Below are positions 3,531-54,212 of a stretch of 64,000 nucleotides of DNA, piece after piece. A program made the translations under genes and the position numbers. The notes beneath the pieces are model-generated. The model worked only from the letters and a program-made list of their open reading frames with translations, made no database searches and had not been told where the DNA came from. Each line of letters begins with the position of its first letter. Positions within the stretch are counted from its first letter, which is position 1. Origin of the DNA: an uncultured virus (IMG/VR IMGVR_UViG_3300017963_000250) (Duplodnaviria > Heunggongvirae > Uroviricota > Caudoviricetes); IMG/VR virus record IMGVR_UViG_3300017963_000250. One strand, 5' to 3'.

Positions 3531-6362
3531 CTAAAACATTTCCGATTGGCTTTCACTGGGCTTCTCCCATTCATGTGGGGTGCTCTCAGCGTCATCACGG
3601 TCGTAGTCGAGCGATATGCGCCAGGTCCACTTCTGGTCACCGAGCACACGGTCGCGCTTCCTTTCGGCCCCCAGCCCTTCCAGGAGCTTGCCCAGCGTTC
3701 GTTCGTCCGGGATGGCGTCCTTCTCTGTGGCCTGCCCCGCGAATCGTTTGACGTACGGGTGCGCGCCCTTGAGCGAGAACACCAGCGCGTCGTTTTCCGC
3801 GCCGTTCGCTTCGCTTCGCGCGATATTGGGGGGAAGGTCGCCGTTCGCGAGCATCGCCCGCATCAGGTTGAGGAACATCACCGCCGAGTTGGAGTCCTCG
3901 GTCGCGCGTTGCTGGTCCAGGATGTCCCGCTCGATCCAGGCAACGTGCATGTTTTCGGCAAGTCCGAGCTTTTCCAGGAACAGGTTGTAACAGGCTTTCA
4001 GTATCGAGTGGTTGTCGACTATACGTTGGTCTGCCTCAATCTTCGAGTTCGCCATGATCTCCCTGTCCGCCTCCTTGATTATCTCCTTGGGCGTGATTTT
4101 GAGCGCCTCCGGCACGAAGCAGGCCATGTAGTCCTTGCGCTTCTTCAGTTCCCATATCGACTCCTTTGACGCCTCGTTTCGGGTGATCTGGTCGAAATCG
4201 AGCGTCACCAGCCTGGACGCGACTGCTTCGCTTTCGTACCCGGTGATCAGTCTGGTCGAGCACAGGACGAACGCGGCATTGATAGCGCCGGTCTTGATCT
4301 GGAGGTCGTTCGTGGTCATCGCCCGCGCGTACGGATCGCGGTCGTAGAACGCCTGCACCGTCGCGTTGGTTTTCCGGCCGGCCTGATATTCGTTAAGTAC
4401 CAGCGGGATGCCGCAGTATTTTTCTGCCGCCCGGTTCCATGCCTTGGTCGTACTGTTGAAATTGAACGGCTTTATCTCGCGGTGCGCACCGAACAGGGCC
4501 AGGATAAACTCGGCCAGGGTCGACTTGCCGCACCCTTTCGGCCCATTCAGGAACAGCAGCGGGTAGAACCCGTAATGGTCCTTGATGTCGTTCGCGAATA
4601 ACGCCCCGACCGCGAATCCGAGTGCCTTCCACAGTTGCTGCCTGGACGCGGTCTTGTCGTATGCGTCGTGGAAGTGCCGGATCGTGTCCTCCATGAATTT
4701 CTTGGGGTTTCCCGGCATGTTGATCTTGAGGATGCCCTTCGGCGGGATGAGGTCGGTCAGCGGCATCACCTGGCCCGGTATCGCCAGACCGTTCGTGAAC
4801 ATGAAGACCTGCTGACCCTCTTGCTTCCCGACATATTGGGTCTTCCTCTTCTCCTCGGTACATGACTCGTCCGTTACGTATTCGAGGAAACTGTTGTGGA
4901 CGATCTTGGACGAATTGTCGACTAGGTGCATCCCGACCGAGGCAACCTTGTCGCAGAACTTTTGCAGGATCATGAGGTCGCTGCCGGCGATCTCGATCGT
5001 GCGGGTGATACCGTTTCTCGTCAGCGCGATGAGCCACGACACCTCGTCGTCGTCGTTCACGATCTTCTCCATCACCCGCATCGTGAAGTTGCACACCTGT
5101 ACTTTCTCGGTCTTTACCTCGCCGGTCTGCGGATCGACCTTTATTTTATTGAAAAACGTTTTGCCGTCTACCTCCTGGAAATGCTTGTTTTTTTTGCGTT
5201 TCTTTTCCGGCGCGTTCGCGCACCGGTGCGGGGACCCGTCCGGGTTTACCGGCTTTTTGTCCATGAACGTGATCGTGCCACCGCATCGGTCGCATCCGCG
5301 CTCCAGTGATGGCGGGTCGATGCCGAGTTCATCGCAAGCCTCCAGGAAGTTCTTGCCGTCCTCCTGCATCACCAGCCCGATCACATGCTTGCCGCTGCCT
5401 CCTTTCTTGACGTTGTACTTGCAGTTGCCGGCGCAGCAGTAGAATTCAATACCGTGTCGCGACACCACGAATCCGGACGGGTTGGAGTCGTTGTGAAACT
5501 TGCACAAATATTGGCCCGACCGGTCGGGCTTCATGCCGTACCGGTCACGCAGCACGTTTACCATCTCTATTTCGCGCAACTGGGCGTCTAACCGGTCGTC
5601 GGTCTCCATCTTGATCCCGGACCGCGCCGCTTTCTTGATGTCAATGAACTCCTGCCGCTCCTTTTTCTCCTTATCTTCTGTCGCCCTTTTCTCCTGCTGT
5701 GCCTCATTTACTACCTCTTCCGCTTTTTTGCGTGATATTTTCGGTGTCTTGGCGATGCGCTCCCAGGTTTTTTTATCCTTCGTCGAGTGCCACCCGCCTT
5801 TGCCGTCCCAGAACCACACATGCGAATAATCGTCCGTGGAGTGGTACTTACCGGGCAGACGCACGTAGTTCCCCCACTTGCGTTTGCCTTTCTGTTTCGG
5901 AAAGGTCTCCGGACACCCCGGCGCGACTGCTTCCGCGAATTCGTACGCCAGCCCTTGCGGTATTACCTCCTCGAAGAAAAACCAGAGGTGGTATCCGCCA
6001 GTAGAGTCTTCGAGCAGGAACGAGATTTCGCGCTCGTGCAGGACGTTAAGAACCGGGTTTATCTCGAAGAGCAGCTTCTTTTTCTCCTCTTCGAGCTTTT
6101 TACAGTCTCCGTTTATGAGCCCGAGCTTCGCTTCTTTCGCCGTGTCGTAGTCGGCGCACGCGAGACAGGACCCCTCATCCTCCGATTGGGTGTACGTGCC
6201 GATCGGCTGGCCCTTGCCCTCGATGTGATCGGCGATAAGCTTATCGGTTACCTCCTTTTTTACGTTTTTTCCTTCGGTTTTCTTCCCCTTTTGTCTCGCC
6301 TTGTAGGACCCGTAGCCATCGGTCCTCACAAAAAACAAGTCCTTTATTTTTCCCTCTAACAT
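3531..6362 (-). CDS. DNA primase-helicase (N-terminal AEP-like primase, CHC2-like Zn finger, C-terminal P-loop helicase)
   Basis: 943 aa. ADYD, EDSTGGYHLWFF and YVRLPG primase-like motifs; CKFHNDSNPS...CCAGNC Zn ribbon; Walker A GPKGCGKST; Walker B-like LVLNE. Confidence 0.8.
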   Translation of the reverse strand: MLEGKIKDLFFVRTDGYGSYKARQKGKKTEGKNVKKEVTDKLIADHIEGKGQPIGTYTQSEDEGSCLACADYDTAKEAKLGLINGDCKKLEEEKKKLLFEINPVLNVLHEREISFLLEDSTGGYHLWFFFEEVIPQGLAYEFAEAVAPGCPETFPKQKGKRKWGNYVRLPGKYHSTDDYSHVWFWDGKGGWHSTKDKKTWERIAKTPKISRKKAEEVVNEAQQEKRATEDKEKKERQEFIDIKKAARSGIKMETDDRLDAQLREIEMVNVLRDRYGMKPDRSGQYLCKFHNDSNPSGFVVSRHGIEFYCCAGNCKYNVKKGGSGKHVIGLVMQEDGKNFLEACDELGIDPPSLERGCDRCGGTITFMDKKPVNPDGSPHRCANAPEKKRKKNKHFQEVDGKTFFNKIKVDPQTGEVKTEKVQVCNFTMRVMEKIVNDDDEVSWLIALTRNGITRTIEIAGSDLMILQKFCDKVASVGMHLVDNSSKIVHNSFLEYVTDESCTEEKRKTQYVGKQEGQQVFMFTNGLAIPGQVMPLTDLIPPKGILKINMPGNPKKFMEDTIRHFHDAYDKTASRQQLWKALGFAVGALFANDIKDHYGFYPLLFLNGPKGCGKSTLAEFILALFGAHREIKPFNFNSTTKAWNRAAEKYCGIPLVLNEYQAGRKTNATVQAFYDRDPYARAMTTNDLQIKTGAINAAFVLCSTRLITGYESEAVASRLVTLDFDQITRNEASKESIWELKKRKDYMACFVPEALKITPKEIIKEADREIMANSKIEADQRIVDNHSILKACYNLFLEKLGLAENMHVAWIERDILDQQRATEDSNSAVMFLNLMRAMLANGDLPPNIARSEANGAENDALVFSLKGAHPYVKRFAGQATEKDAIPDERTLGKLLEGLGAERKRDRVLGDQKWTWRISLDYDRDDAESTPHEWEKPSESQSEMF

Positions 6363-11508: not shown

Positions 11509-12261
11509 ATGCCGGATTACAACAACGTACAACTGATGGGGAGACTTACCCGTGACGTCCAGATCAGGCCGACACAGTATGGCTCTATCGGGTCGTTTGG
11601 GCTCGCGGTGAACAGACGCGGCAAAGGGCCGAACGCGAAAGAGGAGACCACATTCGTCGATATCACCGTTTTCGCGAAGCTGGCGGATGTATGCGCGCAG
11701 TACCTCCGCAAAGGCAGTCCGGTGTTCGCGGCGGGGCACCTCAAGCTCGAACAGTGGAACGACCGAACTACCGGCGAGAAACGTAGCAAGCTCGGCGTGG
11801 TAGCCGAAACGGTCCAGTTCCTCGACCGACCACAGGGACAAAGTAACGGTCAGTACCAGGCACAAAACTGGCAGCAACAACCGAACCAGAACTACCCGAC
11901 ACCGCCGCCGCCGCCAGAACAGCATAAAATCCAGGACCAACAACCGCCGGCACAACCGCAGGTACGCGAGTCGATCATGCCCGCGCCCGACACGAACCAG
12001 CCCGGATGGGAAAAAAACCAGGTCGGGTTCAGAAAAGCTGGCGGACACACATGGGGCGAACTCGCCAATGACGTCCAATTGCCGGACGGGACTACCGGAC
12101 GCGATTACCTGACCAAATTGTCGTACTGGAAAGACCAACCGAATATCGCCAGGGTCGCGCAGTGCGCGCTCGACCTGGTCGACGGACAGACCGCAACGCA
12201 ACCGCCAGACCCCGGACCGCCGGCGATGGATGAGCCCGGTGTCGACGAACCGCCGTTTTAG
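11509..12261 (+). CDS. ssb: Single-stranded DNA-binding protein with extended C-terminal region
   Basis: NNVQLMGRLTRD, FGLAVNRR, YLRKGSPV, acidic C-terminal tail DEPPF. Confidence 0.92.
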   Translation: MPDYNNVQLMGRLTRDVQIRPTQYGSIGSFGLAVNRRGKGPNAKEETTFVDITVFAKLADVCAQYLRKGSPVFAAGHLKLEQWNDRTTGEKRSKLGVVAETVQFLDRPQGQSNGQYQAQNWQQQPNQNYPTPPPPPEQHKIQDQQPPAQPQVRESIMPAPDTNQPGWEKNQVGFRKAGGHTWGELANDVQLPDGTTGRDYLTKLSYWKDQPNIARVAQCALDLVDGQTATQPPDPGPPAMDEPGVDEPPF

Positions 12262-12268
12262 GGGAAGA

Positions 12269-12363
12269 TTCACCGCAGAGGGCGCAGAGGACGCAGAGGG
12301 GAGAGAAGACTTGGGGGAAACTTTTTGGAAAAAGTTTCCCCCAAACCCCCTTCAAAAACTTTA
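12269..12363 (+). repeat. Dispersed REP-like intergenic repeat, copy A
   Basis: TTCACCGCAGAG(G)GCGCAGAG..GCAGAG plus GGGGAAACTTTTT..AAAAAGTTTCCCC palindrome plus CCCCCTTCAAAAACTTT. Confidence 0.85.
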
Positions 12364-12379
12364 TTGTGGAGGAGAACAA

Positions 12380-13216
12380 ATGCATGAAATATCCGACATA
12401 GACTCCGATCAATACGGTGAGTATGTCGACGTCACCATAAGCGGCGTAGTTCAGCGTATGCGCCGGATAAGGGCCGGCAAGTTTATGATGGGCTCACCGG
12501 AGAACGAACCGAACCGGGACGACGATGAGACGCTGCATGAAGTGACCATAACGCAGGACTTCTGGCTGGCCGATACGGCCTGCACCCAGGAACTGTGGGA
12601 AGCAGTAATGGGCAGTAACCCCAGCCGGTTCAAAGGAGCGAAGAGACCGGTCGAGAAAGTGACCTGGCATGATTGCAAAAAGTTCCTCGGAAAACTTGAC
12701 GGGTTCCGGTTGCCTACCGAGGCGGAATGGGAATATGCCTGCCGGGCAGGGACGACTACCCCGTACCGTTTTGGCGACAGCATTACGCCGGAGCAGGCAA
12801 ATTACGGCAGTAATCGGGAAGAAGCTGTCGCGGTGAAGTCTTTCCCCTGCAATGCCTGGGGGTTATACGAAATGCATGGTAACGTGTGGGAGTGGTGTTC
12901 CGATTGGCATGGGGAATATAGAGGAGACGCTATTGACCCCGCTGGCCCCGAGGTTGGCTCGCTCCGCGTGTTGCGCGGCGGTAGCTGGTTCTACTACGCC
13001 AGGTTTGCCCGCTCTGCTTTCCGCGGCAGGCGCGATCCTGACTTCCGCTTCGGCAACACCGGTTTTCGTCTTGCCCGAGGTTATATGGAAATGGCAGGGA
13101 AGGGAGAATGGTGGTGCCGGACAGGCGCAGCGGAGCAAGTCGGTCAGGCACCATGGGAAAGGACGACCGTGACAATTGATGGTGTACGGTATAAACTTGT
13201 GCCGCTGGAGAATTAA
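12380..13216 (+). CDS. Formylglycine-generating enzyme (FGE-sulfatase/SUMF1, C-type lectin fold) domain protein
   Basis: FMMGS, RLPTEAEWEYACRAG, NAWGLYEMHGNVWEW, RVLRGGSW, GFRL. Start refined to ATG 12380 after GGAGGAG. Confidence 0.9.
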   Translation: MHEISDIDSDQYGEYVDVTISGVVQRMRRIRAGKFMMGSPENEPNRDDDETLHEVTITQDFWLADTACTQELWEAVMGSNPSRFKGAKRPVEKVTWHDCKKFLGKLDGFRLPTEAEWEYACRAGTTTPYRFGDSITPEQANYGSNREEAVAVKSFPCNAWGLYEMHGNVWEWCSDWHGEYRGDAIDPAGPEVGSLRVLRGGSWFYYARFARSAFRGRRDPDFRFGNTGFRLARGYMEMAGKGEWWCRTGAAEQVGQAPWERTTVTIDGVRYKLVPLEN

Positions 13217-25440: not shown

Positions 25441-26070
25441 GTGATGACGAAAAAGAACGGTATGGACGAAAAGATAAAAGAGTTGCGGGCGGCGGCAAGA
25501 AGACGTCCCATACATGAAATTTACACGCAACCGTTATCGCTTCCCTTTGTACTGAAAGACAGGGGCGTTTATGACGATCTGTATTTCGCGCCAGATGGTT
25601 ACTATTATTATATGCATGGGATATCGGTATTTTTCTCCAACCTGTCCGAAGATGGCATGAAGAATTTGGTGGACCGTGTGATTGAGGATAGTCGTTTGAA
25701 GCTTTTTGTTGGGAATTGCAAAACCGGAAAGGAGTATTTTTCGATCGAGCCCCTCCACCCGATCGTGTACGAGGTGAACCCGGTGTCTATGTCTTCGGTA
25801 GAGCCGGTGAATATGCTCATCGGTGGCGAGAAGGTCATGTACCGTACAGAGGAGGAGGCGAGGGACGCCGCCAATGCCTGTATGGATAAGGCCAGGTTTT
25901 TTGACTTGACGTCGGTGCTCAACGATACACAGAAAATTTCCTGGCCCCTTGTTCTGACGGGAAGGCGTAACGACATATTGAAGGTCGAGCTTTTCCTTAA
26001 GAGACATTTGTCTGATTATGTGGGCTGCACCGTGTTTATACACGGGATGCTGGGGAGACCGCTGAGTTGA
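25441..26070 (+). CDS. Hypothetical protein
   Basis: Start refined to GTG 25441 overlapping the previous stop. Confidence 0.55.
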   Translation: MMTKKNGMDEKIKELRAAARRRPIHEIYTQPLSLPFVLKDRGVYDDLYFAPDGYYYYMHGISVFFSNLSEDGMKNLVDRVIEDSRLKLFVGNCKTGKEYFSIEPLHPIVYEVNPVSMSSVEPVNMLIGGEKVMYRTEEEARDAANACMDKARFFDLTSVLNDTQKISWPLVLTGRRNDILKVELFLKRHLSDYVGCTVFIHGMLGRPLS

Positions 26071-26570
26071 CAGGAAGGGGAGGAATGTTTGGAGGCGATC
26101 CACGGATGAGTAATATGGGCAAGAAGGATCGGTTGATGCGTGATGTCGATTCAATATACCGTGATATCTGAAGCAGAGACGGTAGCAAGTAAAATACTGC
26201 AATCGGCCGGTGATGGTATTTTTATAATGGGAATTCGACGTGTGGTAGATAGAGAACCTTGTTGCGGACACGAAGAAGCCTCTGGGTCATCTTTTGATCG
26301 GGAACTGCCTTCTAATGCTATCTGGCAATCCATTAAACATTGGGTAATAGATGGTTCACGCCCCTCTCAGGATCACGTTGACAACATTGTTGATACAATT
26401 ATAGACTTCAGACAAGAGACGCACAGGCTGAAAGGAGAAATTCAGGCATATATACCACTAGAAGAACCGGAAGAATAACCCCACTAAACGGATGTTTGAC
26501 GCCAGATGACATTTTCGCCCACTCCCCCCACCATATGGTGTCTCATATTGCCATCTCGGAAAACAACCTC

Positions 26571-26598
26571 TTGACAAAGGCGTCAATGTGGATATAAT
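26571..26598 (+). promoter_or_regulatory. Consensus sigma70 promoter
   Basis: TTGACA (26571), 16 bp, TATAAT (26593). Confidence 0.75.
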
Positions 26599-26652
26599 GA
26601 GAATTGTTATAGGGGGAGGCGTGACCGGCGGTAATGCCTGCTTGTATCCCCG

Positions 26653-26904
26653 CTACTCATATTCAATCTCACACTCCTCGGGATGCATTTCTCCCGATGC
26701 CAGCATAAATACAATCAGCTTGATACTCTTTGCCGGTTCACGGATGCCTTTCTCCCAGGTAGAGATGCTGCTAGGTGAAACTCCCAAAATTTCGCCTAGT
26801 TCCATTTGTGTCGCCTTTATCCGTAATCGTGCCATCCTGCAAGCCATTGCAAAATTTTCTGCTTTGACTTCAAGAATTATTTTTCTTTTTTTTCTCTTTG
26901 CCAT
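26653..26904 (-). CDS. XRE-family HTH repressor
   Basis: ATQMELGEILGVSPSSISTWEKGIREP; SD AGGAGG. Confidence 0.85.
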   Translation of the reverse strand: MAKRKKRKIILEVKAENFAMACRMARLRIKATQMELGEILGVSPSSISTWEKGIREPAKSIKLIVFMLASGEMHPEECEIEYE

Positions 26905-27555
26905 AATTTTATCCTCCTATAAAAATTATACTCAGACCAATTTCTATATTCTATAAAAAAAATAGGGGGAAAATAAAAAACCTTCTTTTAAAAGGAATAG
27001 ACAGTATACAACTTTTGGTTTAGAAGGAGACGAGTAAATGGAATACATTAACTTCAAGGACAGGCTTTTAAAAAAGATAGGAGACCATCTTGAGGAGCAT
27101 GACAAGTTTCCGAATACGGTATATATACCGAATCACGAAAAAATTGAGATCATGAAGCTGACAGCCGATGAAGTGGGAAGCGAGGTAGCCGGGCAGATAT
27201 TCCGATATGGCCCCACGACCTGGAAAATTTGTTCGGTCTAAAAATTATTTGGGACGCAGAAACTTTCGAAGTAAAACGGGTAAAAACGGGGACATGTCCA
27301 TGGTAAAGCTTGAAGCACGAAAAGAGAATGGTGGCATATGGATATCCGAGGGTTCGTTCGAACACCTGCTGAATTGTCTCGCTAACCAGCAGTTCGTTGG
27401 CGAGCGTCCACCATGTGGCGACGCTGTCGCGATGTCGCCAGAGGAATATGCAACAATACATCAGGAAATGCAAGACGTGATCGACGATTTTTATCGCCAG
27501 TGCATGGGGTTTTTCCATGGCAAAAAATAATTCCTTGAAAAATTAAATTTTATCC

Positions 27556-27583
27556 TTGACATTTCAATTTTATACCGTACAAT
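27556..27583 (+). promoter_or_regulatory. Promoter of the omegaRNA/array locus
   Basis: TTGACA (27556), 16 bp, TACAAT (27578); predicted TSS about 27588-27590. Confidence 0.75.
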
Positions 27584-27587
27584 AAAG

Positions 27588-27812
27588 GTGGACTATGCGG
27601 GGGTAACCCCGAGGTGAATCAGCTTCAGTGCTTCGGCACTACGTTATCTGGGGATATGACACCCGCGTGTGCTTCTCCAGCATTCGGCACTGTCGTCCCT
27701 GAGTAAACAGACCTGTGTTGCAGGGTCAGTCGAGGGGACGCGACAAACCCGGATAACATTGGCGAGGAGAGACGCCGAAAGGCGCGTTACAAGCCCCGAA
27801 AGGGGCTCTTTT
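27588..27812 (+). ncRNA. omegaRNA (HEARO-like IscB scaffold) with a 5' anti-repeat, acting tracrRNA-like
   Basis: Characteristic omegaRNA segments CAGCTTCAG, CTACGTTAT, ATGACACC, TGCTTCTCCAGC, CACTGTCG, TAAACAG, ATAACATTGGCGAGGAGA, GCGTTACAAG. Ends in AGCCCC-GAAA-GGGGCT + T-run. iscB lies downstream. Confidence 0.85.
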
Positions 27813-27852
27813 TATAGGGGGACGTCATTGCGTGGCAGCGTCACTGATAAGA

Positions 27853-29128
27853 GTTTGTCGGCAACCGTAGCCCGAGCGGCCAAGCATCCGAGTTCACAGC
27901 AAGCCATAGTTCGGTGGCAATAATAATAGTTCGCAGCAAAACATAGTTCGACAAAAACGATGGGTATTTCTTCCATCACTGGCTCGCAGACTTAGCTATG
28001 CGTGTTCATCAACAACCATAGTTCACAGTATAAAACGGTGGTCGTCGAATAAGGGATCAGAGTTCACCGCAACCATAACTCCACGACAATAGCTTGCACC
28101 GGCGAGTTCACCAACAACCATAGTCCGACTGATTGAACGTCATATAAGTTTGCCGTCAACCATAGTCCACAGCCAGTTCACAACAACTATAGTTCAAAGA
28201 CTTGCTCATAGCAGTCCAATTTTTCTGTGGTTCGCCACAAACCATAGTCCTAATATAAAGAGAAGGTGGAAATTCGCCACAAACCATGGTCCGGTATGCA
28301 AAAAAGTGTTGACAGCGATATTGAATTGCAGCCGTTCACGGCAAGCCATAGTACAATTAAAGGCTCCGAGTCCACAGTAACCATAGTCCAACTAAAACAT
28401 GGCAGCGCCGGCAGGAACCTTTAATGATGTCCCGTTCACAGCAAACCATAGTCCAAAATGCAAAAAAGAGAAACACCGAAACATGCGCTCACCGCAACCA
28501 AGTCCAAAAATTTGTAACTGCTGTTCACGGCGAATCATGGTCCAGCGAGGATTACGAAGGATGGGGTTCGCCGCAACCCATAGTCCGACAGTTAGCCAGA
28601 TGCATTTAAGTTCACAGCGAATCATGGTCCAGGCACAATGCGACGGATTTGGTTCACAGCGAACCATAGTCCAAGATGTATAGAAGTTTGTTCACCATTA
28701 ACCATAGTTCAACAAAAACAGAGTATGGCTAACATCATGTTCACAGCAAAACATAGTCCAACAAAAGCAATGGCACCAGATGTTGGTTCGCCGCAAAACA
28801 TAGTTCAACAAAGCTCCTTTTGGCCTAGCAATGCGTTCACAGCGTACCATAGTTCAACAGAAACGTGAGAGAATTACCCTCTCTCTATCAATCAAGAGTA
28901 TGTCGTTCACGGCGAACCATAGTTCAACAGGAACAGTTCAAGTCATCGTATCTGTAAAGTCCTTAATCGAGTTCACGGCAACCCATAGTTCAACAAAAAC
29001 TTTACGCGGTGTAGGTTCTCATGAAAAAATTGCGTTCACAGCAAACCATAGTTCAACAAAAACTGGAGAATTGTGTGAATTGCAGCATATGCGCCCGGGT
29101 TCACAGCAAACCATAGTTCAACAAAAAC
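27853..29128 (+). CRISPR. Degenerate CRISPR-like array, about 26 repeats, consensus GTTCACAGCAAACCATAGTTCAACAAAAAC
   Basis: Repeat starts at 27853, 27892, 27929, 28004, 28062, 28106, 28148, 28176, 28230, 28272, 28334, 28370, 28434, 28487, 28523, 28566, 28610, 28652, 28690, 28739, 28786, 28835, 28905, 28971, 29034, 29099, with unique intervening sequences. Confidence 0.85.
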
Positions 29129-29164
29129 CCCCAGTAAAATGGGGGTTTTACCAAAGGAGGTAAA

Positions 29165-30517
29165 ATGACAGTATTTGTCCTCAACAAAAACAAGAAACCA
29201 CTGATGCCCTGCACCGAGCATCGGGCGAAAAAACTGATGGAGTCCGGACGCGCAGTCGTTCATAAGTGTTTCCCCTTTACCCTGCGAATCAAAACGTGTA
29301 TAGACGCGGAAGCGCCGGCCCTGCGCCTCAAGATATGTCAGGGCGCGAAACGTACCGGCATGGCGGTCTTGAACGGTAACAAGGTGATATTTCTGGTCGA
29401 GATCGGGCATAAAAACCCCCACATGAACATCCACAGCAGGGCATCCCTCCGACGCGGTCGCCGGCACCGCAAGACGAGGTACCGACCGGCCAGGTTCAAG
29501 AACCGGCGCAAACCGAAAGGGTGGCTACCGCCCTCCCTCTCATGTAGGGTCGACCAGATAATGCACGCAGTCAAAAAGATCCGCGATAGTCTGCCGATCG
29601 CCGAGCTCTCCGTCCAGACCGCCAAGTTCGACACGCAAAAGATGCACAATTCGGAGATATCCGGCGTGGAGTACCAGCAGGGCAAACTCGGCGGATACGA
29701 GGTACGCGAGTATCTCCTGGAAAAATGGGGCAGGAAATGCGTATACTGTGGAAAGAAAGACGTCGAACTCGGGATCGACCATATCGTACCGAAAGCACGC
29801 GGTGGATCGAATAGCGTCGAGAACCTGACGATCGCCTGCAAGACGTGCAACAGAAAAAAGGGCCGGAAAACGGCAGCGGAGTTCGGGCACCCGGAGGTGC
29901 TCGCCAAAGCGAAAAAACCGCTGAAAGAGGCGGCGTTCATGAACGCGATCCGGTCACGCGCCTACATGAGATTGCTCGATGTCTTCCTGCCTCAACGCAT
30001 AGAGGTCGGGACCGGCGCTATGACCAAGATGAACAGGATAACCGCCGGCCTGCCGAAACTCAAATGCCTCGATGCCTGCTGTGTCGGTGAAAGCACGCCG
30101 GAGAAACTGGATTTTACCGGTGTCAATTACTACCAGACATGGGATTACGTCGGACGCGGTAACCGCCAGATCTGCCAGCCGATAAACAAGGACGGATACC
30201 CGGTAAGGCACCGCAGCAGAAAAAAGTCGGTCGACGGCATCCAGACCGGCGACTTCGTCCTCGGCATGAAAAAAAACGGCGACAAGATGACCGGCCGGGT
30301 CAATATCCGCGCGTCGGGGAATTTCTACATACCGGTCAAAGGCGGCAAACGGTTCACGTTCACCCGCCGTAATACCCGCCTCATTCAGCACGGAGACGGA
30401 TGGCGATACGGCAAAAAGAAATTGCCAGAGGGGGTACAACCTGGTAATCGCAGGAGACAACACCATATATGCATAGAGAATGAGGGGGGAACGCCTCCAA
30501 GATTTACACCTCTGTGA
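29165..30517 (+). CDS. iscB: IscB RNA-guided endonuclease (PLMP, split RuvC, bridge helix, HNH); RuvC apparently inactivated
   Basis: N-terminal VFVLNKNKKPLMPC; Arg-rich bridge helix RRGRRHRKTRYRPARF.NR; HNH CVYC...DHIVPKARGGSNSVENLTIACKTCNRKKG; SD AAGGAGG. Confidence 0.93.
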   Translation: MTVFVLNKNKKPLMPCTEHRAKKLMESGRAVVHKCFPFTLRIKTCIDAEAPALRLKICQGAKRTGMAVLNGNKVIFLVEIGHKNPHMNIHSRASLRRGRRHRKTRYRPARFKNRRKPKGWLPPSLSCRVDQIMHAVKKIRDSLPIAELSVQTAKFDTQKMHNSEISGVEYQQGKLGGYEVREYLLEKWGRKCVYCGKKDVELGIDHIVPKARGGSNSVENLTIACKTCNRKKGRKTAAEFGHPEVLAKAKKPLKEAAFMNAIRSRAYMRLLDVFLPQRIEVGTGAMTKMNRITAGLPKLKCLDACCVGESTPEKLDFTGVNYYQTWDYVGRGNRQICQPINKDGYPVRHRSRKKSVDGIQTGDFVLGMKKNGDKMTGRVNIRASGNFYIPVKGGKRFTFTRRNTRLIQHGDGWRYGKKKLPEGVQPGNRRRQHHICIENEGGTPPRFTPL

Positions 30518-30934
30518 TTTTTTAAAGAACAGGAGCGTACATGGCAGAGTATATGGCAGAGTGCAGTTATTGTGGTCGCGAATATACAGAGAGCTACTGT
30601 ATCTGTGTTGGTGCGCAGATGCAACAGTTTTATACCGGCATTGTTCAGGACGACATTCGGCATCTAACAGCAGCCCTTGATAGGTTGACCTCTGTCCTTG
30701 AATATGGCAGGGCAAAAAAATGACCAGAAATTGTCGGAGGGGGGGGGTGATGGAGCCGTACAATGACGGGGCTATATCGCTTCTGCACGAACTTTTGGGG
30801 TATATCCACGATGATATATATGTGAAAGTTCCTCGTGGTGCAGTCAAAAAGGGGCAAAACATCAGGTTGACGAGGCATAACGATTTACTTGTTTTCGCCG
30901 ACAAAGTACGTGTTTTTCTGGATAAGGACAAGAT

Positions 30935-31498
30935 ATGACCAGATATATCGGGTATGCCAGGGTGAGCACCACGGACCAGGATCTTACGATGCAACTGGAC
31001 GAGCTCGAAGAGGTCGGGTGCAAGAAGATTTTCTCCGACAAGGTCAGCGGCGCGAAAGAGAAACGGCCCGGCCTGAACAAATGCCTCGCTTATCTCAAGG
31101 AGGGCGACACCCTCGTAGTATGGCGACTCGATCGGTTGGGGCGGTCGATGTTGCACCTCGTCCAAACCGTAAACGAGCTCAAAGAGAGGGGCGTCGCTTT
31201 CAAGTCGATCCGGGATGGCGCGATCGACACCAATACCGCGTCGGGCGAACTCGTCTTCAACATATTCTCGGCATTAGCGCAATTCGAACGGTCGATCATA
31301 CGCGAACGGACAATGGCCGGTCTCAAAGCGGCGCGGGCCAGGGGCAGGATCGGCGGCAGGAGGCCGATCACGGCGAAAGACCCGAAAGTGCGGGTGGCGA
31401 AAAAGATGCACGAGAACCACGAGATGAGCATTAAGAGTATTTGCAATACTCTTAAAATATCTCAGGCGACGTTTTATCGGTATCTGAAATTGAAATAG
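30935..31498 (+). CDS. Serine recombinase, resolvase/invertase family, with C-terminal HTH
   Basis: IGYARVST.DQ, GDTLVVWRLDRLGRS, ERT.AGL.AARARGR.GGR, ATFYRY. Confidence 0.93.
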   Translation: MTRYIGYARVSTTDQDLTMQLDELEEVGCKKIFSDKVSGAKEKRPGLNKCLAYLKEGDTLVVWRLDRLGRSMLHLVQTVNELKERGVAFKSIRDGAIDTNTASGELVFNIFSALAQFERSIIRERTMAGLKAARARGRIGGRRPITAKDPKVRVAKKMHENHEMSIKSICNTLKISQATFYRYLKLK

Positions 31499-31507
31499 GG
31501 AGGGGGA

Positions 31508-31550
31508 TTCACCGCAGAGGCGCAGAGGGCGCAGAGATAAGAGAAGAATT
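31508..31550 (+). repeat. Dispersed REP-like repeat, copy F (partial)
   Basis: TTCACCGCAGAGGCGCAGAGGGCGCAGAG. Confidence 0.75.
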
Positions 31551-31588
31551 AGGGGATGCTTTGACCGGTAGAGGGCAAAAGGAGGTAG

Positions 31589-32008
31589 ATGATGGCGAGA
31601 ATCAGGGTTCCAATTATGATCAGGTTGATCAGGGCAGCGAATAAAACGACCCAGAAGCAACTTGGAGAAGAGTTGACGGTAACGGCACAGACGGTGTCGA
31701 ACTGGGAGTCAGGCAAAACCACCCCACCAGCGAGAAAGTTGGAAAAATTGGTGAAAATGTTTGAAAGCATCAGTATATATGAAGACGAAAAGGGTGTGAC
31801 GTCTAGCAAAAAATCAGAGAAATGTGTCTGTTGTGGTAACGCCGAGCAAATTGGGAAGTCTAAATATTGTGGAACGTGCCTTGGAATTCGCGGCGAACTA
31901 ATAAGGTATACCAGATGGTTACATTATAGCAGGCGTGGGATACTTGAAGTGGGCACAGTGGTTGAGATGTACCTCGGGAGCAAAAAAAGATATGGGGTTG
32001 ACTATTGA
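31589..32008 (+). CDS. XRE HTH regulator with C-terminal Zn finger
   Basis: TQKQLGEELTVTAQTVSNWESGKTTP; CVCC...CGTC. Confidence 0.8.
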   Translation: MMARIRVPIMIRLIRAANKTTQKQLGEELTVTAQTVSNWESGKTTPPARKLEKLVKMFESISIYEDEKGVTSSKKSEKCVCCGNAEQIGKSKYCGTCLGIRGELIRYTRWLHYSRRGILEVGTVVEMYLGSKKRYGVDY

Positions 32009-32677
32009 GAGAGGGGTTAAAGTGACCACAAAAAACGAGAATGGCCTTGCCATCTGTGAAAGATGCAATCTCCCCATCAGGAAATGGGGGGAGGTGCATG
32101 TCAAAGACGCTCGTACCGGTGAGACAGAACGGATCATCTGCAAGCCATGCAACGCTGACGAACAACACGAAGCGTGGCGAGAGTCGGTGCAACCGATAGA
32201 GAGGGAAACCCATGTGCTACAGGAGAAGATCGAAAAAATGCTGAGTGCCGAAGGAGATGTCGACCAGACGGAATTTCTGAAGGTAGCTAATGGTCTGTTG
32301 TCTTTATTGCAGGTTATTTTGAGAGGAGAATGGAGGTAGATGATGGTGGGATGGTTAAATGTCGACCAAGTTCAAGAAGAATAGAAAGCGATGAGACGTG
32401 GTTCTATGACCATGGTCTTACCGGTATGGACATGTATACATTTGAAGACGATAAGTTGACATATTTCTCTATAGATGCATGAGGGGGTGACTATGCAGAT
32501 CAAAATTCATAAGGACAAGACGATGCACTTGATGGGGATGCTGGACGAGTGCAGTCGCCTTTTGTACGAATCCGTACAACCTGTGCCTGAAATTCCAAGA
32601 AAAGAACTTCTGGCTGAGGTCGAAAGGTATCTCACCGAGCTGTTCCAGGATGGGACACTCCAGATAGAGGAGAAAAC

Positions 32678-38055: not shown

Positions 38056-38967
38056 ATGCAAGGAGTTTCTGTGAAAACAATGCATCTTTTTGCCGGTATA
38101 GGAGGAGGCCTTTATGCAGACCTCATTTTGGGACATGAGCCTGTCGTCGCCGTCGAGCAAAACCATTACTGTTGCAAAGTCTTGCGACAGCGAGCCCGAG
38201 AAGGATGGTTCCCCAGCCTGCAAGTGTGGGAAGGGGACATCCGCATGTACGATCCATCCGAGCACAAAGGCAGAGTGGATTCGATCGCAGCGGGCTGGCC
38301 TTGCCAGGACATTAGCGTTGCTGGAAGAGGAGCAGGGCTTGACGGTGAACACAGCGGACTCTTTTTCGAAGTCGTCAGGATCGCCGGCGTATTACGACCA
38401 CGCTACATCTTCATGGAAAACTCACCAGCTATCGTTACTAGGGGACTCGACAGGGTTCTCGGATCGCTGGTCGAGCTCGGGTATGATTGCCGATGGACGG
38501 TATTATCCGCAGCGAATTCGACTTCCGCGCAAATACGTGCCCGGTGGTGGTGCCTTGCCACTTTACCCGACGCCGACAGTGACAGACAGCAAAGATCGGA
38601 CATATCAAGTAGCGAACGGAAGGAAGTTGCCGACATTGGCGGGAGCAGCCAGAGGGTTCTGGCGAGCAGTGAAAGCATCGGATGCGCAAACCGGTTGGAT
38701 AATGGCAGACGACAAACATGCAAGCCTGAGAGATCAGGTAAAAATGTATCCAGCTCCGGCAGCACGGGATCACAGGAGCGGGAAGGGCAGGAAAGACAAC
38801 GGGCACACACCACAACTGCCGGAGGTGATTGGTGGGCAATTGAGCCCGGAATGGGTCGAGTGGCTAATGGGGTTCCCAACCGGCGCGACCGAATTGAGGG
38901 ATTAGGTAACGCGCAGGTGCCGGCACAGGCGGCGCTTGCATGGACAATACTCAGCAAAAAGGGGTAA
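38056..38967 (+). CDS. DNA (cytosine-5) methyltransferase, large subunit (motifs I-VIII and X)
   Basis: HLFAGIGG, AGWPCQD, FMENS, R.RWW, LGNAQVP; true start may be a few codons downstream. Confidence 0.88.
   Translation: MQGVSVKTMHLFAGIGGGLYADLILGHEPVVAVEQNHYCCKVLRQRAREGWFPSLQVWEGDIRMYDPSEHKGRVDSIAAGWPCQDISVAGRGAGLDGEHSGLFFEVVRIAGVLRPRYIFMENSPAIVTRGLDRVLGSLVELGYDCRWTVLSAANSTSAQIRARWWCLATLPDADSDRQQRSDISSSERKEVADIGGSSQRVLASSESIGCANRLDNGRRQTCKPERSGKNVSSSGSTGSQEREGQERQRAHTTTAGGDWWAIEPGMGRVANGVPNRRDRIEGLGNAQVPAQAALAWTILSKKG
38114..38905 (+). CDS. Overlapping alternative-frame MTase small subunit (TRD-like region plus motif IX)
   Basis: +1 frame: LYPTPT, MYPAPAARDH, GGQLSPEWVEWLMGFPTGAT (motif IX), which the main frame lacks. 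Start uncertain. Confidence 0.7.
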   Translation: MQTSFWDMSLSSPSSKTITVAKSCDSEPEKDGSPACKCGKGTSACTIHPSTKAEWIRSQRAGLARTLALLEEEQGLTVNTADSFSKSSGSPAYYDHATSSWKTHQLSLLGDSTGFSDRWSSSGMIADGRYYPQRIRLPRKYVPGGGALPLYPTPTVTDSKDRTYQVANGRKLPTLAGAARGFWRAVKASDAQTGWIMADDKHASLRDQVKMYPAPAARDHRSGKGRKDNGHTPQLPEVIGGQLSPEWVEWLMGFPTGATELRD

Positions 38968-38969
38968 AC

Positions 38970-39653
38970 ATGTTTATTTTGCATAACCCAAGAGAATTCA
39001 GTTTTACGTCCGTATCCCCAAAAATAGTGAAAGTAGCGAGGAAGCTGCATGTGCTCGATCTGTTTTGCGGTGCAGGCGGGGTCTCCATGGGGCTATACGA
39101 GGCGGCACACGGTCTTGTCAATATCACCGGTATCGACATCGACAGGCAACCGGACTACCCGTTCAACTTCATACAGGAGAATGTCTATAAAATATCGCCC
39201 CAGTACCTGAAGGGTTTCGACTTCATCTGGGCCTCGCCACCATGCCAGAGATACAGTTTCGCGACCAGGAAAGCGCGCAGAGCATTGCATCCAGATTCGA
39301 TTCCGCCGACAAAAAGACTTCTGCGTCACGCCACTGTGCCATGGGTTATAGAAAATGTACGTGACGCGCCAATCCGCAAAGATCTCATGCTTTGCGGGTC
39401 GTTTTTCGGGCTCGGGGTGATAAGGCACCGGTACTTCGAAATAGACGGTTTCAAGATACCGAAGTTCAAAGCGAAATGTAAACACCCGGAGAAGTTCTTT
39501 ACTGTTGCGGGAGGAGGAACCGGCACCGTGAAAGAATGGCAGAACGCGATGGGTATTTTTCATACGAAGAATCGCAAGTCTCTGCGCGAGTCGATCCCGC
39601 CGGCGTATAGCAGGTTCATTTTCTCGTATTACCTGGAGATGCTTTTGTCTTGA
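38970..39653 (+). CDS. Second, compact C5 DNA methyltransferase-like protein
   Basis: LDLFCGAGG, ASPPCQ, IENV, RHRYFE, ESIPPAYS. Confidence 0.85.
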   Translation: MFILHNPREFSFTSVSPKIVKVARKLHVLDLFCGAGGVSMGLYEAAHGLVNITGIDIDRQPDYPFNFIQENVYKISPQYLKGFDFIWASPPCQRYSFATRKARRALHPDSIPPTKRLLRHATVPWVIENVRDAPIRKDLMLCGSFFGLGVIRHRYFEIDGFKIPKFKAKCKHPEKFFTVAGGGTGTVKEWQNAMGIFHTKNRKSLRESIPPAYSRFIFSYYLEMLLS

Positions 39654-39823
39654 GTTTTTTTGTAATTTATGTTATAATAAAGGGTTGAGCAAGTAAGCTC
39701 CTAACTTAACTTAACTCCACAAAAAAGTTGACCCCATGCCCTCTCCCGATGGTTATCTTGTCTGCTTCAAGGTTATCTCCATACGCCCGGCCATGGGGTT
39801 TTTCTTTTACAAGGGGCAATAAA

Positions 39824-40882
39824 GTGAAAAAATTATTTTTTATAATGATGTTTTTTTTGCCGGCAGTGGGGTGTACCGGCGGCGGCGATGACGACGACAC
39901 GGCAGATCCGCGTACGAGGTACCCGACCGCGACCTGGTCGCAAAAGACTACCCCGGCCGGGTCGACTCTCGCCCGCGCCGACGCCGATCGTGCCGGTCAT
40001 ACCGCCGTCGTCCACAACGCCCGCATGTACATCTTCGCCGGCAAGGACGAGACCGGGCTCCACAATTCTCTGCATGTCTACGACTTTTTTGCGAACACCT
40101 GGCAGGAACTAGCGCCCGGCGGCACCGTCCCGGACGCACGCTGGCGACATGGCGCTGCTGTCATCAACGGCAAGATGTATGTCATCGGTGGCGAAGGCGC
40201 GGCCGGGGCACTCGCTGACGTGTGGGAGTACGACATCGCTGGCAACGCCTGGACACGGAAAAGCGACGCGCCGTTCTCTCGCGCCGGCCATGCCGTGAGC
40301 GTTAGCGGTAACATGATCTACGTGTTCTGCGGCAAGGACGAGACCGGTACCGCCATCGCCGATATGTGGGAATACGACCCCGTAGGAGACAGTTGGCGAC
40401 AATTGCTCGACAAGGACGCCCCACCATCGCCACGAGACGGCGCTCGCGCCTCTTTCTTCGAGACGATATACCTCCATGGCGGCGATGACGGGGCGGGCAT
40501 CTGGGACAATTATCTCTACAAGTTCGACTTCGCGACCTGGTCATGGAATACACGCACCAGATACGCCGAGGGGCGCGCATATCACGCATCCTGTTTCGCG
40601 GACGCAAGATTATACGTTTTCGGCGGCAAGCTCGCGAACGGTGCCTTTACGAACGATTTATGGGAATATGACCCGTACCATTACCCGAACGAGTACGCGA
40701 CCGAAACGACCGAGCGCACCTACCTGATCCATGAGGACGACCCGGCGCGCGACCCCAGCCCGCGCGCATACGCGACAGGGGTCGCCTACGACGGCAAATT
40801 CTACGTGTACGGCGGGATAGACTCCGCGGGGAATTATCTGGACGAACTATGGGAATGCGGACTCGGGTTTGTGATGAAGTGA
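39824..40882 (+). CDS. Kelch-repeat beta-propeller lipoprotein
   Basis: Signal peptide KKLFFIMMFFLPAVG-C (lipobox-like); about 6 Kelch repeats (R.GH...Y.FGG...W.YD). Confidence 0.85.
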   Translation: MKKLFFIMMFFLPAVGCTGGGDDDDTADPRTRYPTATWSQKTTPAGSTLARADADRAGHTAVVHNARMYIFAGKDETGLHNSLHVYDFFANTWQELAPGGTVPDARWRHGAAVINGKMYVIGGEGAAGALADVWEYDIAGNAWTRKSDAPFSRAGHAVSVSGNMIYVFCGKDETGTAIADMWEYDPVGDSWRQLLDKDAPPSPRDGARASFFETIYLHGGDDGAGIWDNYLYKFDFATWSWNTRTRYAEGRAYHASCFADARLYVFGGKLANGAFTNDLWEYDPYHYPNEYATETTERTYLIHEDDPARDPSPRAYATGVAYDGKFYVYGGIDSAGNYLDELWECGLGFVMK

Positions 40883-43713: not shown

Positions 43714-44463
43714 TTACACCTCCTCCCAAAAACCTTTTATGTACAGGTCTATCGCTTGCCCTTCACCTTTGTAGTCTACCACCTGGGACGAACTGAGCTC
43801 CTGGGTGACATCGGCGAACCCGCCGGTGGCGAAACTTTGCCAGGCGGCGCTACTGCCGTCCTTTCTAAGCCACACGCTTTTCTTTTCGTCCGCGCTATCT
43901 GCGAGCATAGTGACCAGGGTAGAGGTCGGCGGCACATAATTGACACAACTTACATTGGCATACGTTGCGGCTGTACCTCCCGAAAGCACTTCGCCCACGT
44001 CCGCATCATCGTATAGAATCATGCGGAGTCTATCGCCGAACGTTTTGCCGACAAGAAGGTTGCTGCCACTGTCGTTGTAATACGAACCCAGGCGGCGTTG
44101 CTTGGTGTACCCTGCCGGCTGGGTCGGCGAAGTCGAGCTTATAGAGAACCGAAAGGTGGTAGCCAGGGTGGTCGGGTGCTTGAACACCCATATATAATAC
44201 CAGGTTGACGCGGCCTCACTCCCGGTATCGAGATCCGTGGTGAGGTCCAGGGTGTTGGTACCGGTTATTGCGATATCGGTGGTATCGTCGTCACTGCGGC
44301 ACTCGCCCGGCCCGATGTCTATCTGGTATGTCGGGTTGGTGACGTTGTTCTCCAGGGTAAATCTACTGAGATAGCTTTTGGGGTACCCAATCAGGGTCGG
44401 GTCGAACTGGATATCGGCTATTTTCCTGCCGCCGGTTAGCCTTGAAAAATTTTCTGTTGCCAT
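43714..44463 (-). CDS. Fibre/virion protein
   Basis: LDTGSEAASTWYYIW...PAGYT..RRLGS motif common in phage fibre proteins. Confidence 0.6.
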   Translation of the reverse strand: MATENFSRLTGGRKIADIQFDPTLIGYPKSYLSRFTLENNVTNPTYQIDIGPGECRSDDDTTDIAITGTNTLDLTTDLDTGSEAASTWYYIWVFKHPTTLATTFRFSISSTSPTQPAGYTKQRRLGSYYNDSGSNLLVGKTFGDRLRMILYDDADVGEVLSGGTAATYANVSCVNYVPPTSTLVTMLADSADEKKSVWLRKDGSSAAWQSFATGGFADVTQELSSSQVVDYKGEGQAIDLYIKGFWEEV

Positions 44464-52988: not shown

Positions 52989-54212
52989 TTACTCCATAAA
53001 TATTTTGCCTGCCGAATCCTGTTTTCTCTTCATTATGACCACGAGCTTCTCTAGCCTCTTCAGGCGTTCGGGGAACTTCTCCAGGGCAACGACCTGTCCC
53101 GGTAACGTTTGTAGCCGTTCGACCGACTCCCGGAGCGATTTCAACTCTTCCCTGATCGCGTCGAGATCGGTCGCGTCCGGCATCGACCGGTACTCTGCTA
53201 GGCACGCCTCGACATCGGCCCTGAATTCGGTCACGTCCTGATATCGCTGAGATTCGTCATGGTGGACCGCTCGCTCGAATATCTTTCTCAAGGCAAACGG
53301 AAACAATTCGCTCGGGAATACCTTCTTGAGCACTTCATTGTCGACCTTGATGAGCCCGGAGTCGTCAGGCTCGCCACGGTTCCACACGCACCAAAACGTG
53401 TACCCGAGTGTCGCGATATCGTGCAGGTACGTTCTGAACTTCGAATATTCTAACTGGGACGGATCGCTAAACAGTGGTGAGCCCAATCTCGTGTTCGCGC
53501 TGGTAACGCTCTTCGACTCGCCCAAATTTTTCGCGATCGTAAAGTCCAGGAAGACCGGCATGTCGTTGTTCATCAAGATATTGCCGGGCTTCAGGTCGCT
53601 ATGAACCACCTGGCTGCGATGGATCATCTCGACGACACGGAGTATCTTGTGAAAACCGGCCAATATCTCCTCGTCGCTCTTGCTCTCGCACCACCGCATG
53701 AGCGAGGGCGCGTCGATATACTCCATTATCGCATATAGGAACGGTGCTTGCTGGATATCGAGTATGTTCGGGATATATCCATACTTCGTATACCCCTCGT
53801 CTACGAGTATATTGTGCAGTTGCAGTTGCAAGAAACACCCGCGTGTAAACCTGGCCGAATACTCCGTTTCGCGTTTCTCGTCCTCTTTCGTGCGGATATA
53901 GTCGTGAACCCTGAGAAAAATTTGCTTGTAAACGCCTTTTTTCACTGCCTGGTCAGGCGTACGCTGTGGTAAAGCGACCTTGAACACGACCTCTCGCCGG
54001 TTGCGGCGATCACGCACCAGCATGACCACCGACTCGCCACCCTTGTAGATGTACTTTAGCCACTCGTACTGATAATAGTTGTCGGCACCATCGGTTATCT
54101 TCGGGCTTACCGCCGAGATAAGATGCCGACCCCATATCGGGTTGGCGTCGGAAAGCAGGTCGTCCTTGCAATCGTTTATCCGCCGCAGGCTGTCAGTGTA
54201 CCTGTCGACCAT
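52989..54212 (-). CDS. Ser/Thr protein kinase with C-terminal coiled coil
   Basis: VVFKV, IMEYI, VVHSDLKPGNIL, LDFTIAK, GSPLF.DP. Confidence 0.9.
   Translation of the reverse strand: MVDRYTDSLRRINDCKDDLLSDANPIWGRHLISAVSPKITDGADNYYQYEWLKYIYKGGESVVMLVRDRRNRREVVFKVALPQRTPDQAVKKGVYKQIFLRVHDYIRTKEDEKRETEYSARFTRGCFLQLQLHNILVDEGYTKYGYIPNILDIQQAPFLYAIMEYIDAPSLMRWCESKSDEEILAGFHKILRVVEMIHRSQVVHSDLKPGNILMNNDMPVFLDFTIAKNLGESKSVTSANTRLGSPLFSDPSQLEYSKFRTYLHDIATLGYTFWCVWNRGEPDDSGLIKVDNEVLKKVFPSELFPFALRKIFERAVHHDESQRYQDVTEFRADVEACLAEYRSMPDATDLDAIREELKSLRESVERLQTLPGQVVALEKFPERLKRLEKLVVIMKRKQDSAGKIFME

Follow-up and report, generated by a model that had tools for sequence, protein, structure and literature searches.

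An IscB locus with a candidate split omegaRNA and a repeat array that carries the strands missing from its scaffold

The stretch of DNA analysed here, 64,000 nucleotides (nt) of the uncultured virus record IMGVR_UViG_3300017963_000250 (IMG/VR; Caudoviricetes) and hereafter called the window, contains an iscB gene, an omegaRNA scaffold and, between the two, an array of 26 short direct repeat units. The scaffold lacks two 5′ strands of its guide adaptor, and the repeat units are complementary to precisely the strands left without a partner. We conclude, with a probability of roughly two in three, that the locus is an IscB (OMEGA) system in which a break at the loop of the guide adaptor's first inner hairpin has divided the omegaRNA, so that the units and the scaffold together form the guide RNA.

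An omegaRNA scaffold without its 5′ strands

Rfam places the sole match to HEARO (RF02033) in the window at 27567-27776 on the + strand; at 89.3 bits (E = 9e-17) it exceeds the gathering threshold of 83, and the RNA proper probably begins near 27588. In the cmscan alignment, the second inner hairpin and all downstream parts of the model align well to the scaffold. Two 5′ strands of the model, that of the outer stem (positions 1-8) and that of the first inner hairpin, are aligned to promoter-like DNA that does not pair. The second inner hairpin is the intramolecular hairpin CGGGGGTAACCCCG (CGGGG-GTAA-CCCCG) at 27598-27611. On its 5′ side lies GTGGACTATG (27588-27597), the 3′, or descending, strand of the first inner hairpin. 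On its 3′ side, after a single A at 27612, lies GGTGAAT (27613-27619), the 3′ strand of the outer stem (P1), directly 5′ of a conserved CAGC; all of these elements are on the + strand. The first-pass annotation, made from the sequence alone, had read the two strands as an anti-repeat in two parts around a 14-nt hairpin. Its letters and coordinates are exact, and its reading is now supported by two independent lines, the homology to HEARO and the substitution pattern of the repeats. The window contains a single copy of the composite GTGGACTATG-N(10-20)-GGTGAA, and 100 dinucleotide-preserving shuffles contain none.

Upstream of the scaffold we found no partner of GGTGAAT in cis. Downstream there are 26, in the form of GTTCAC(C), block A of the repeat unit, and the only partner of GTGGACTATG is block B of the same unit, CATAGTYCA. 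The two strands missing from the scaffold are thus exactly those that the 26 units carry and, because they are found only there, the omegaRNA appears to be divided at the loop of the first inner hairpin. Only a + strand transcript of the repeats is complementary to the + strand scaffold, so the + strand would be the CRISPR RNA (crRNA) strand, as had been predicted.

We compared 100 loci of IscB relatives (80 from genomes, 20 viral) and scanned 40 of them (20 from genomes and all 20 viral) for HEARO with Rfam. All 40 have a full-length match (84-176 bits) 24-67 nt before iscB. In 37, the six nt immediately before the conserved CAG are the exact reverse complement of the six with which the omegaRNA begins; these relatives hold the guide adaptor in one RNA, in cis, whereas the 5′ strands are absent from the window's scaffold. 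The outer stem covaries among the relatives (GTCAAC/GTTGAC, GTCATA/TATGAC, GTCAGC/GCTGAC, ATCACG/CGTGAT). The pair in the window, GTTCAC/GTGAAT, differs from the family's commonest, GTCAAC/GTTGAC, at two positions and on both sides, which shows that repeat and scaffold changed together.

The three exceptions among the 40 are L009, with one mismatch, L098, with several, and L094, whose stem encloses a 65-nt insert in cis. The short HEARO match of L094 made it a candidate for a second split; it was rejected, since its outer stem is present in cis as GTTGAAC...GTTCAAC around the insert. This viral relative has a divergent guide adaptor (4728-4806 of its locus), in which the outer stem encloses a 65-nt hairpin and the Rfam model reads a deletion.

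Exact k-mer scans detected an array beside iscB in none of the 100 relatives' loci. A 13-nt tandem repeat in L023 and scattered k-mers in other loci were rejected as arrays; the L023 repeat (2639-2715, from a Methanosarcinaceae genome) comprises six copies of GTACACAACAAA... directly upstream of a canonical omegaRNA. A single-protein scan of viral contigs found no relatives with the same layout, and a looser repeat pattern gave only four single chance matches in the viral scan. Scanning metagenomes for the repeat pattern recovered only the same element, on an 84-kb contig (L085) with one mismatch in 8384 nt. The one mismatch (C/G) falls at 29111, on the final linker base of the last repeat. 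Two DNA sequencing runs from two studies also contain the element and may be its sources.

Pairing and variation of the repeat units

Each repeat unit consists of block A (GTTCAC), a linker of 6-7 nt and block B (CATAGTYCA), and units were listed by a fuzzy search blind to error type. In the register used here, A1-A6 lie opposite 27619-27614 and B1-B9 opposite 27597-27589, which gives 15 core columns. The A columns comprise 26 units and the B columns 24, the two units with an indel in block B being left out. A Watson-Crick or G:U pair is possible in 367 of the 372 repeat-scaffold cells. By position, 27589-27597 can pair in 23-24 of 24 units and 27614-27619 in 25-26 of 26, and all 15 pairs are intact in 20 of the 24 indel-free units. 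The pairing of units 28148 and 27929 is rich in G:U, and units 28370 and 28334 contain broken pairs. The anti-repeat had been proposed to span 27588-27619. Its core pairs as proposed, and the pairs at its ends are not general: 11 of 26 units can form A7:G27613, and just 2 of 24 can form B10:G27588.

Block B also bears on where the scaffold RNA starts. B8, opposite G27590, is invariably C, and all but one of 24 units have a purine at B9. Together with the unused G27588, these features fit an RNA start at about 27588-27589, 5-6 nt past the -10 hexamer of a promoter-like site (TTGACA-16 nt-TACAAT, 27556-27583, + strand, 11 of 12 consensus matches), from which transcription of the scaffold would begin at about 27588-27591. 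Conservation and pairing reach the same limit: A1-A6 and B1-B9 each hold 0.8-2.0 bits, and none of the positions past B10, or of the 10 that precede block A, exceeds 0.7 bits.

The proposed duplex also forms in cofolding. When each unit was folded with 27588-27621 in RNAcofold, the scaffold hairpin and both helices were present in the minimum-energy structure for all 26 units, with at least 14 intermolecular pairs in 23 (the exceptions start at 27853, 28370 and 28487). The free-energy difference (ddG) of the units ranges from -3.7 to -18.9 kcal/mol. For 2000 random 23-mers from the window the mean was -4.2 kcal/mol (standard deviation 2.5, minimum -17.7), and 23 of the 26 units lie beyond the first percentile of these controls. 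With the full 228-nt scaffold, block B paired as proposed in all four units tested and block A in three of them. The repeat halves resemble each other (GTTCAC and GTYCAAC or GTCCAC; units 27892-29122), as do the two anti-repeat parts (GTGGAC and GTGAAT). Because of this likeness, 27588-27593 offer a second pairing site to block A, and 27615-27619 one to block B; the minimum-energy structures choose the proposed register over the alternative ones.

The repeats vary in a way that preserves these pairs. All the variants named in the first-pass annotation are present (GTTCGC, GTTTGC, GTTCAT, CATGGT, CGTAG, TATAG and GTCC/GTTC), and its claim that most substitutions in the paired blocks keep pairing agrees with our tally. 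Among 39 substitution cells in the core columns, 34 keep the pair (33 C<->T or A<->G changes opposite G or U, and one G>A opposite U), three are pair-breaking transitions and two are transversions. Each pair-breaking transition occurs once only, in one of the most degenerate units, whereas pair-keeping variants reach 7, 11 and 6 units. The first four linker positions hold 14 transitions and 31 transversions, so that transversions account for 2 of 39 substitutions in the paired columns, compared to 31 of 45 at these variable positions (Fisher p = 9e-10). The linker, described earlier as varying freely, does so at these four positions; its last three (AAC) are kept in 25, 22 and 21 of the 26 units. 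This conserved AAC just 5′ of block B (for example at 29109-29111) has no partner in the pairing model.

Would a neutral preference for transitions produce the same pattern? Under a transitions-only null, in which 10 of the 15 columns tolerate a transition, the observed transition cells fall on wobble-tolerant columns too often (34 of 37, p = 3.5e-4). With events counted by parsimony, on a neighbour-joining tree built from the 24 indel-free units, tolerant columns receive 20 of 22 transitions (p = 0.009), and measured against the linker's own spectrum, pair preservation has p = 1e-10. The bias is real and exceeds a simple transition bias, as had been suspected, and we give it moderate weight because the units are related and represent only one locus. 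At A5, B7 and B9, all four pairwise combinations of variants occur, indicating that the variants either arose more than once or were shuffled between units.

The array and the IscB protein

The array occupies 27853-29128 on the + strand, with block A of its 26 units starting at 27853, 27892, 27929, 28004, 28062, 28106, 28148, 28176, 28230, 28272, 28334, 28370, 28434, 28487, 28523, 28566, 28610, 28652, 28690, 28739, 28786, 28835, 28905, 28971, 29034 and 29099. Composite units are confined to it: all 24 pattern matches in the window lie inside the array, with none on the - strand. The last five units are 30-nt repeats (GTTCAC...CAACAAAAAC) at a spacing of 63-70 nt. Farther from iscB the repeat tail is lost and the spacing drops to 37-49 nt, and at least one fragmentary unit lies near 28207. 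Rfam found no match to its CRISPR-DR families in 27500-29200 at E <= 1.

We measured the 25 inter-unit segments from B9 to the next A1. One has 6 nt and the others 14-53 nt, 11 of them 14-22 nt. With 24 of 25 segments at 14 nt or more, the lower bound fits the guide lengths reported for IscB: in the sections cited, a 16-nt guide is described as working for DelIscB (PMC12660989) and OgeuIscB as recognising a heteroduplex of about 14 base pairs (bp) (PMC9640706). The GC content of the segments is 0.42, compared to 0.52 for the window. Two 11-nt strings are common to several segments, ATGCAAAAAAG to segments 10 and 13 and TGAATTGCAGC to segments 10 and 25 (28294-28333, 28456-28486 and 29056-29098), which hints at duplication within the array or at related targets.

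The gene iscB (29165-30517, + strand) encodes 450 residues. Pfam identifies PF14239 (PLMP/RRXRR) at residues 3-173 (E = 2e-58) and HNH families at residues 192-241 (E = 3e-15 to 4e-9), and this combination of domains marks the open reading frame (ORF) as IscB. In the PDB it is best matched by IscB chains, and its similarity to Cas9 and Cas9d chains is limited to the RuvC/HNH core. In alignments, the RuvC columns show D>C, E>Q and H>K, and the HNH His and Asn are kept. The window reads KICQGAK, SVQTAKFD and PKLKCLDA where relatives show K-x-D-x-G, x-E-x-x-K-F-D and K-x-H-x-x-D-A. We take the replaced positions to be the catalytic ones, in which case the protein no longer has an intact set of RuvC catalytic residues. 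All 26 aligned relatives have the Glu, 24 have the His and 23 the Asp. The RuvC Asp is also replaced in the closest database relatives, P0002 and P0037 (D>K), and in L086 (D>A); L086 has lost it, yet retains an ordinary undivided omegaRNA.

Because the RuvC residues are lost and HNH is kept, the alignments suggest that the window IscB is an HNH-only nickase or binder. Its nearest relative is 55% identical, with none between 56% and 100% among the best 120 of 7646 matches in a search of 5.8 billion proteins. Such a distance, together with an open frame of 450 residues, suggests that the frame has stayed open over a long divergence.

Proposed guide RNA and competing explanations

In the arrangement we favor, a scaffold RNA (about 27588-27813) with an apparent promoter and terminator of its own would contain the guide adaptor's descending strands together with the remaining parts of the omegaRNA. 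Each unit would supply the two ascending strands, GUUCAC for the outer stem P1 and CAUAGUYCA for the first inner hairpin, and the 14-53-nt segment 5′ of each unit would serve as its guide. A + strand transcript of the array, presumably processed into unit-length crRNAs, would form two short helices with the scaffold, one of 6-7 bp and one of 9 bp, on either side of the scaffold hairpin. This pairing would rebuild the three-way junction that relatives form within one molecule and would put the guide in its canonical omegaRNA place. Assembled into a ribonucleoprotein (RNP) with the adjacent IscB, the guide RNA would then direct nicking or binding of a target, and not a cut on both strands. We infer each of these steps, from transcription and processing to RNP assembly, targeting and any biological role, from the organization of the locus.

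A number of observations weigh against this split omegaRNA. Several of them would suit a decaying remnant, that is, a defunct and rearranged locus in which the repeats are leftover duplicated omegaRNA 5′ ends or transposon ends and their complementarity is inherited without being selected. The loss of the RuvC catalytic residues could itself mean decay. The spacing is irregular, with one segment of only 6 nt and the fragmentary unit near 28207, and at least six units carry a broken pair or an indel. Phage and plasmid collections contain no protospacers at E <= 1e-5 and only noise (E >= 0.1) at E <= 10, leaving the inter-unit segments without targets there. The two shared 11-nt strings point to growth by duplication. 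When all parsimony events are counted, 20 of 24 preserve pairing, a result that reaches only p = 0.059 against the transitions-only null. Even so, we think decay unlikely. The iscB frame is intact over 450 residues at 55% identity to the nearest relative listed, with the HNH motifs kept; the scaffold scores above the Rfam gathering threshold; and a near-consensus promoter stands exactly at the truncated 5′ end. Neither would unselected repeats be expected to hold 2 transversions in 39 substitutions where they pair and 31 in 45 where they do not, or to confine pair-breaking transitions to single units while pair-keeping ones spread to as many as 11.

Other difficulties concern the array as a source of guides. 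The helices are short. The longest match between a segment and the rest of the window is 12 nt, and none is above chance. The best-conserved end of the array is its 3′ end in the proposed direction of transcription, which is unusual for CRISPR arrays. A promoter scan found no convincing separate promoter for the array, and a terminator-like hairpin stands between it and the scaffold; the array may be read through from upstream. As the units are related by duplication, cell counts overstate their independence, and they represent a single locus, whose sole other copy found is the same element. Finally, the best-conserved, regular units near iscB pair worse (ddG -11 to -13.5 kcal/mol) than some units in the middle (-18 to -19). 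This last point, like the many short segments and the missing targets, would fit a regulatory sponge, in which the array transcript titrates or stabilises the scaffold, or in which only the last regular units guide and the degenerate ones are decoys. We regard a sponge as improbable, given that 24 of the 25 segments fall within the heteroduplex range reported for IscB in the sections cited (PMC12660989, PMC9640706) and that a decoy role is without positive support.

It is also conceivable that the repeats act as DNA, whether as replication-origin iterons or as binding sites for a regulator or the invertase, and that they match the scaffold only coincidentally. Direct repeats of about 22 bp, 26 in number and irregularly spaced in a 1.3-kb noncoding stretch of a mobile element with a primase and an invertase, would not be out of place in such a role. 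We consider this highly improbable, since the two blocks correspond, in both order and orientation, to the scaffold's two orphan strands, in a composite that none of the 100 shuffles reproduced. Moreover, the variation is strand-asymmetric (C>T and A>G rather than G>A and T>C), which recognition of double-stranded DNA does not predict, and there are no inverted repeats for the invertase in 26000-32600.

Altae-Tran et al. reportedly described CRISPR-associated IscB proteins in 2021. In the part of a later account cited here, the association is placed in "several additional, much smaller branches" (PMC10734277). The window resembles these systems, as far as the cited texts describe them, in having an IscB of about 450 residues beside a direct-repeat array with differing segments, a noncoding RNA (ncRNA) with an anti-repeat, and no cas1 or cas2 nearby. 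For DelIscB, the cited description has an ncRNA upstream of the ORF that contains the array and forms one long repeat/anti-repeat hairpin, and calls its processing into two RNAs unknown (PMC12660989). Judged by that description, the window differs in its order of scaffold, array and iscB, where DelIscB has the ncRNA contiguous with the array before the ORF. It also differs in the promoter-like and terminator-like signals that belong to the scaffold itself, in an anti-repeat of two parts around a hairpin, in units that are mostly minimal (about 22 nt, with segments of 14-27 nt) and in the loss of the RuvC residues. Four features thus set the window apart from the published CRISPR-associated IscB as described there: a leading scaffold with its own apparent signals, a two-part anti-repeat, minimal units and a dead RuvC.

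Canonical OMEGA IscB systems (HEARO RF02033; OgeuIscB, 7XHT and 7UTN) share with the window PF14239 and HNH, the RNA family, its position upstream of iscB on the same strand, and a guide that would sit 5′ of the outer stem. In contrast, all 40 relatives have a one-piece omegaRNA with one guide, whereas here 26 separate units supply the ascending strands. The window's HEARO match ends 1389 nt upstream of iscB, compared to 24-67 nt in the relatives, and the array occupies this gap; the window's IscB has also lost the RuvC residues. The design is that of type II Cas9 with its crRNA plus a trans-activating crRNA (tracrRNA), including II-D Cas9d, in that the 5′ anti-repeat of a trans RNA pairs with the repeat 3′ of each spacer. 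Unlike Cas9, the 450-residue protein of the window lacks a REC lobe and has a PLMP domain. The window has no cas1, cas2 or csn2, its spacer lengths are irregular and its repeat matches none of the CRISPR-DR families of Rfam. Two short helices take the place of one long duplex, and helices this short do not imply processing by RNase III.

The stand-alone omegaRNAs of Altae-Tran et al. (2021) reportedly contain their own guide and a complete guide adaptor. In the passage cited here, stand-alone omegaRNAs are stated to act in trans with IscB (PMC9581776). The window's scaffold is likewise encoded apart from iscB, and differs in having no ascending strands and depending on a second RNA. The same source, in part, outlines a route to Cas9 in which a crRNA replaces the ascending strand of the guide adaptor (PMC9581776), and another equates the repeat:anti-repeat duplex with the guide adaptor hairpin (PMC9640706). 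If our reading is correct, the locus would be a natural instance, in an ordinary HEARO-type omegaRNA, of the state that the cited parts of these papers propose for the step from IscB to Cas9 (PMC9581776, PMC9640706). The break falls at a hairpin loop, and 26 internal replicates reveal which positions must pair.

A broader interpretation, which we offer tentatively and at odds well short of even, is that the locus re-invented the dual-RNA design without Cas1 and Cas2. It would combine an HNH-only IscB, a tracrRNA-like omegaRNA and more than 20 minimal crRNAs (a repeat of about 22 nt and a guide of 14-27 nt) in an array grown by duplication and not by spacer acquisition. Such a locus would be a living intermediate in the separation of omegaRNA into crRNA and tracrRNA, with a three-way-junction anti-repeat not described for Cas9 or DelIscB. 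If active, it would offer a very small, multiplexable guide format for IscB editors, in which one scaffold serves all guides and each guide takes about 40 nt. It would then also provide an HNH-only nickase of natural origin and an opening to study how arrays form in the absence of Cas1 and Cas2.

Layout and setting of the locus

Scaffold, terminator-like hairpin, array and iscB follow one another in this order on the + strand. Two GAAA-loop hairpins lie 3′ of the scaffold (27770-27815); the second (27792-27807), followed by CTTTTT, is terminator-like, and scaffold transcription probably ends there. Between the last repeat and the ribosome-binding site of iscB is another hairpin, CCCCCA-GTAAAA-TGGGGG followed by TTTT (29128-29150, + strand), which the scan called terminator-like on the - strand only. 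The array ends 37 nt before the start of iscB. Directly downstream of iscB is a gene for a serine DNA invertase/resolvase (30935-31498). An invertible segment for this enzyme was considered and rejected, as 26000-32600 holds no inverted repeats of 16 nt or longer around the locus.

Eight sites in the window, counting both strands, match the promoter consensus at 11 or more of 12 positions, including a perfect one at 26571. By our own arithmetic fewer than one would be expected in random sequence, and the element therefore seems to use such promoters. The perfect site (TTGACA-16-TATAAT) points towards two small uncharacterized ORFs (27038-27241 and 27207-27530), which lie immediately 5′ of the scaffold. 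Beside it is a divergent helix-turn-helix (HTH) repressor-like gene (26571-26600 for the site and 26653-26904).

No cas1 or cas2 gene, and no Y1 transposase (TnpA) gene of an IS200/IS605 setting, was found among the 95 ORFs scanned in the 64-kb window; many IscB loci lack tnpA. Pfam and PHROGs recognized no capsid or terminase among the window's ORFs, most of which belong to no family. The families that were assigned include a primase, a RuvC resolvase, a DNA invertase, HTH repressors, two C5 methyltransferases and kinases. Overall, the element appears to be mobile and is possibly viral. Its cargo, at 12230-13216, 38056-39653, 39728-40882, 43714-44463 and 52989-54212, includes an FGE-sulfatase-like gene, two C5 cytosine methyltransferase ORFs, a Kelch-repeat gene, a weak Mtd-like match and a Ser/Thr kinase.

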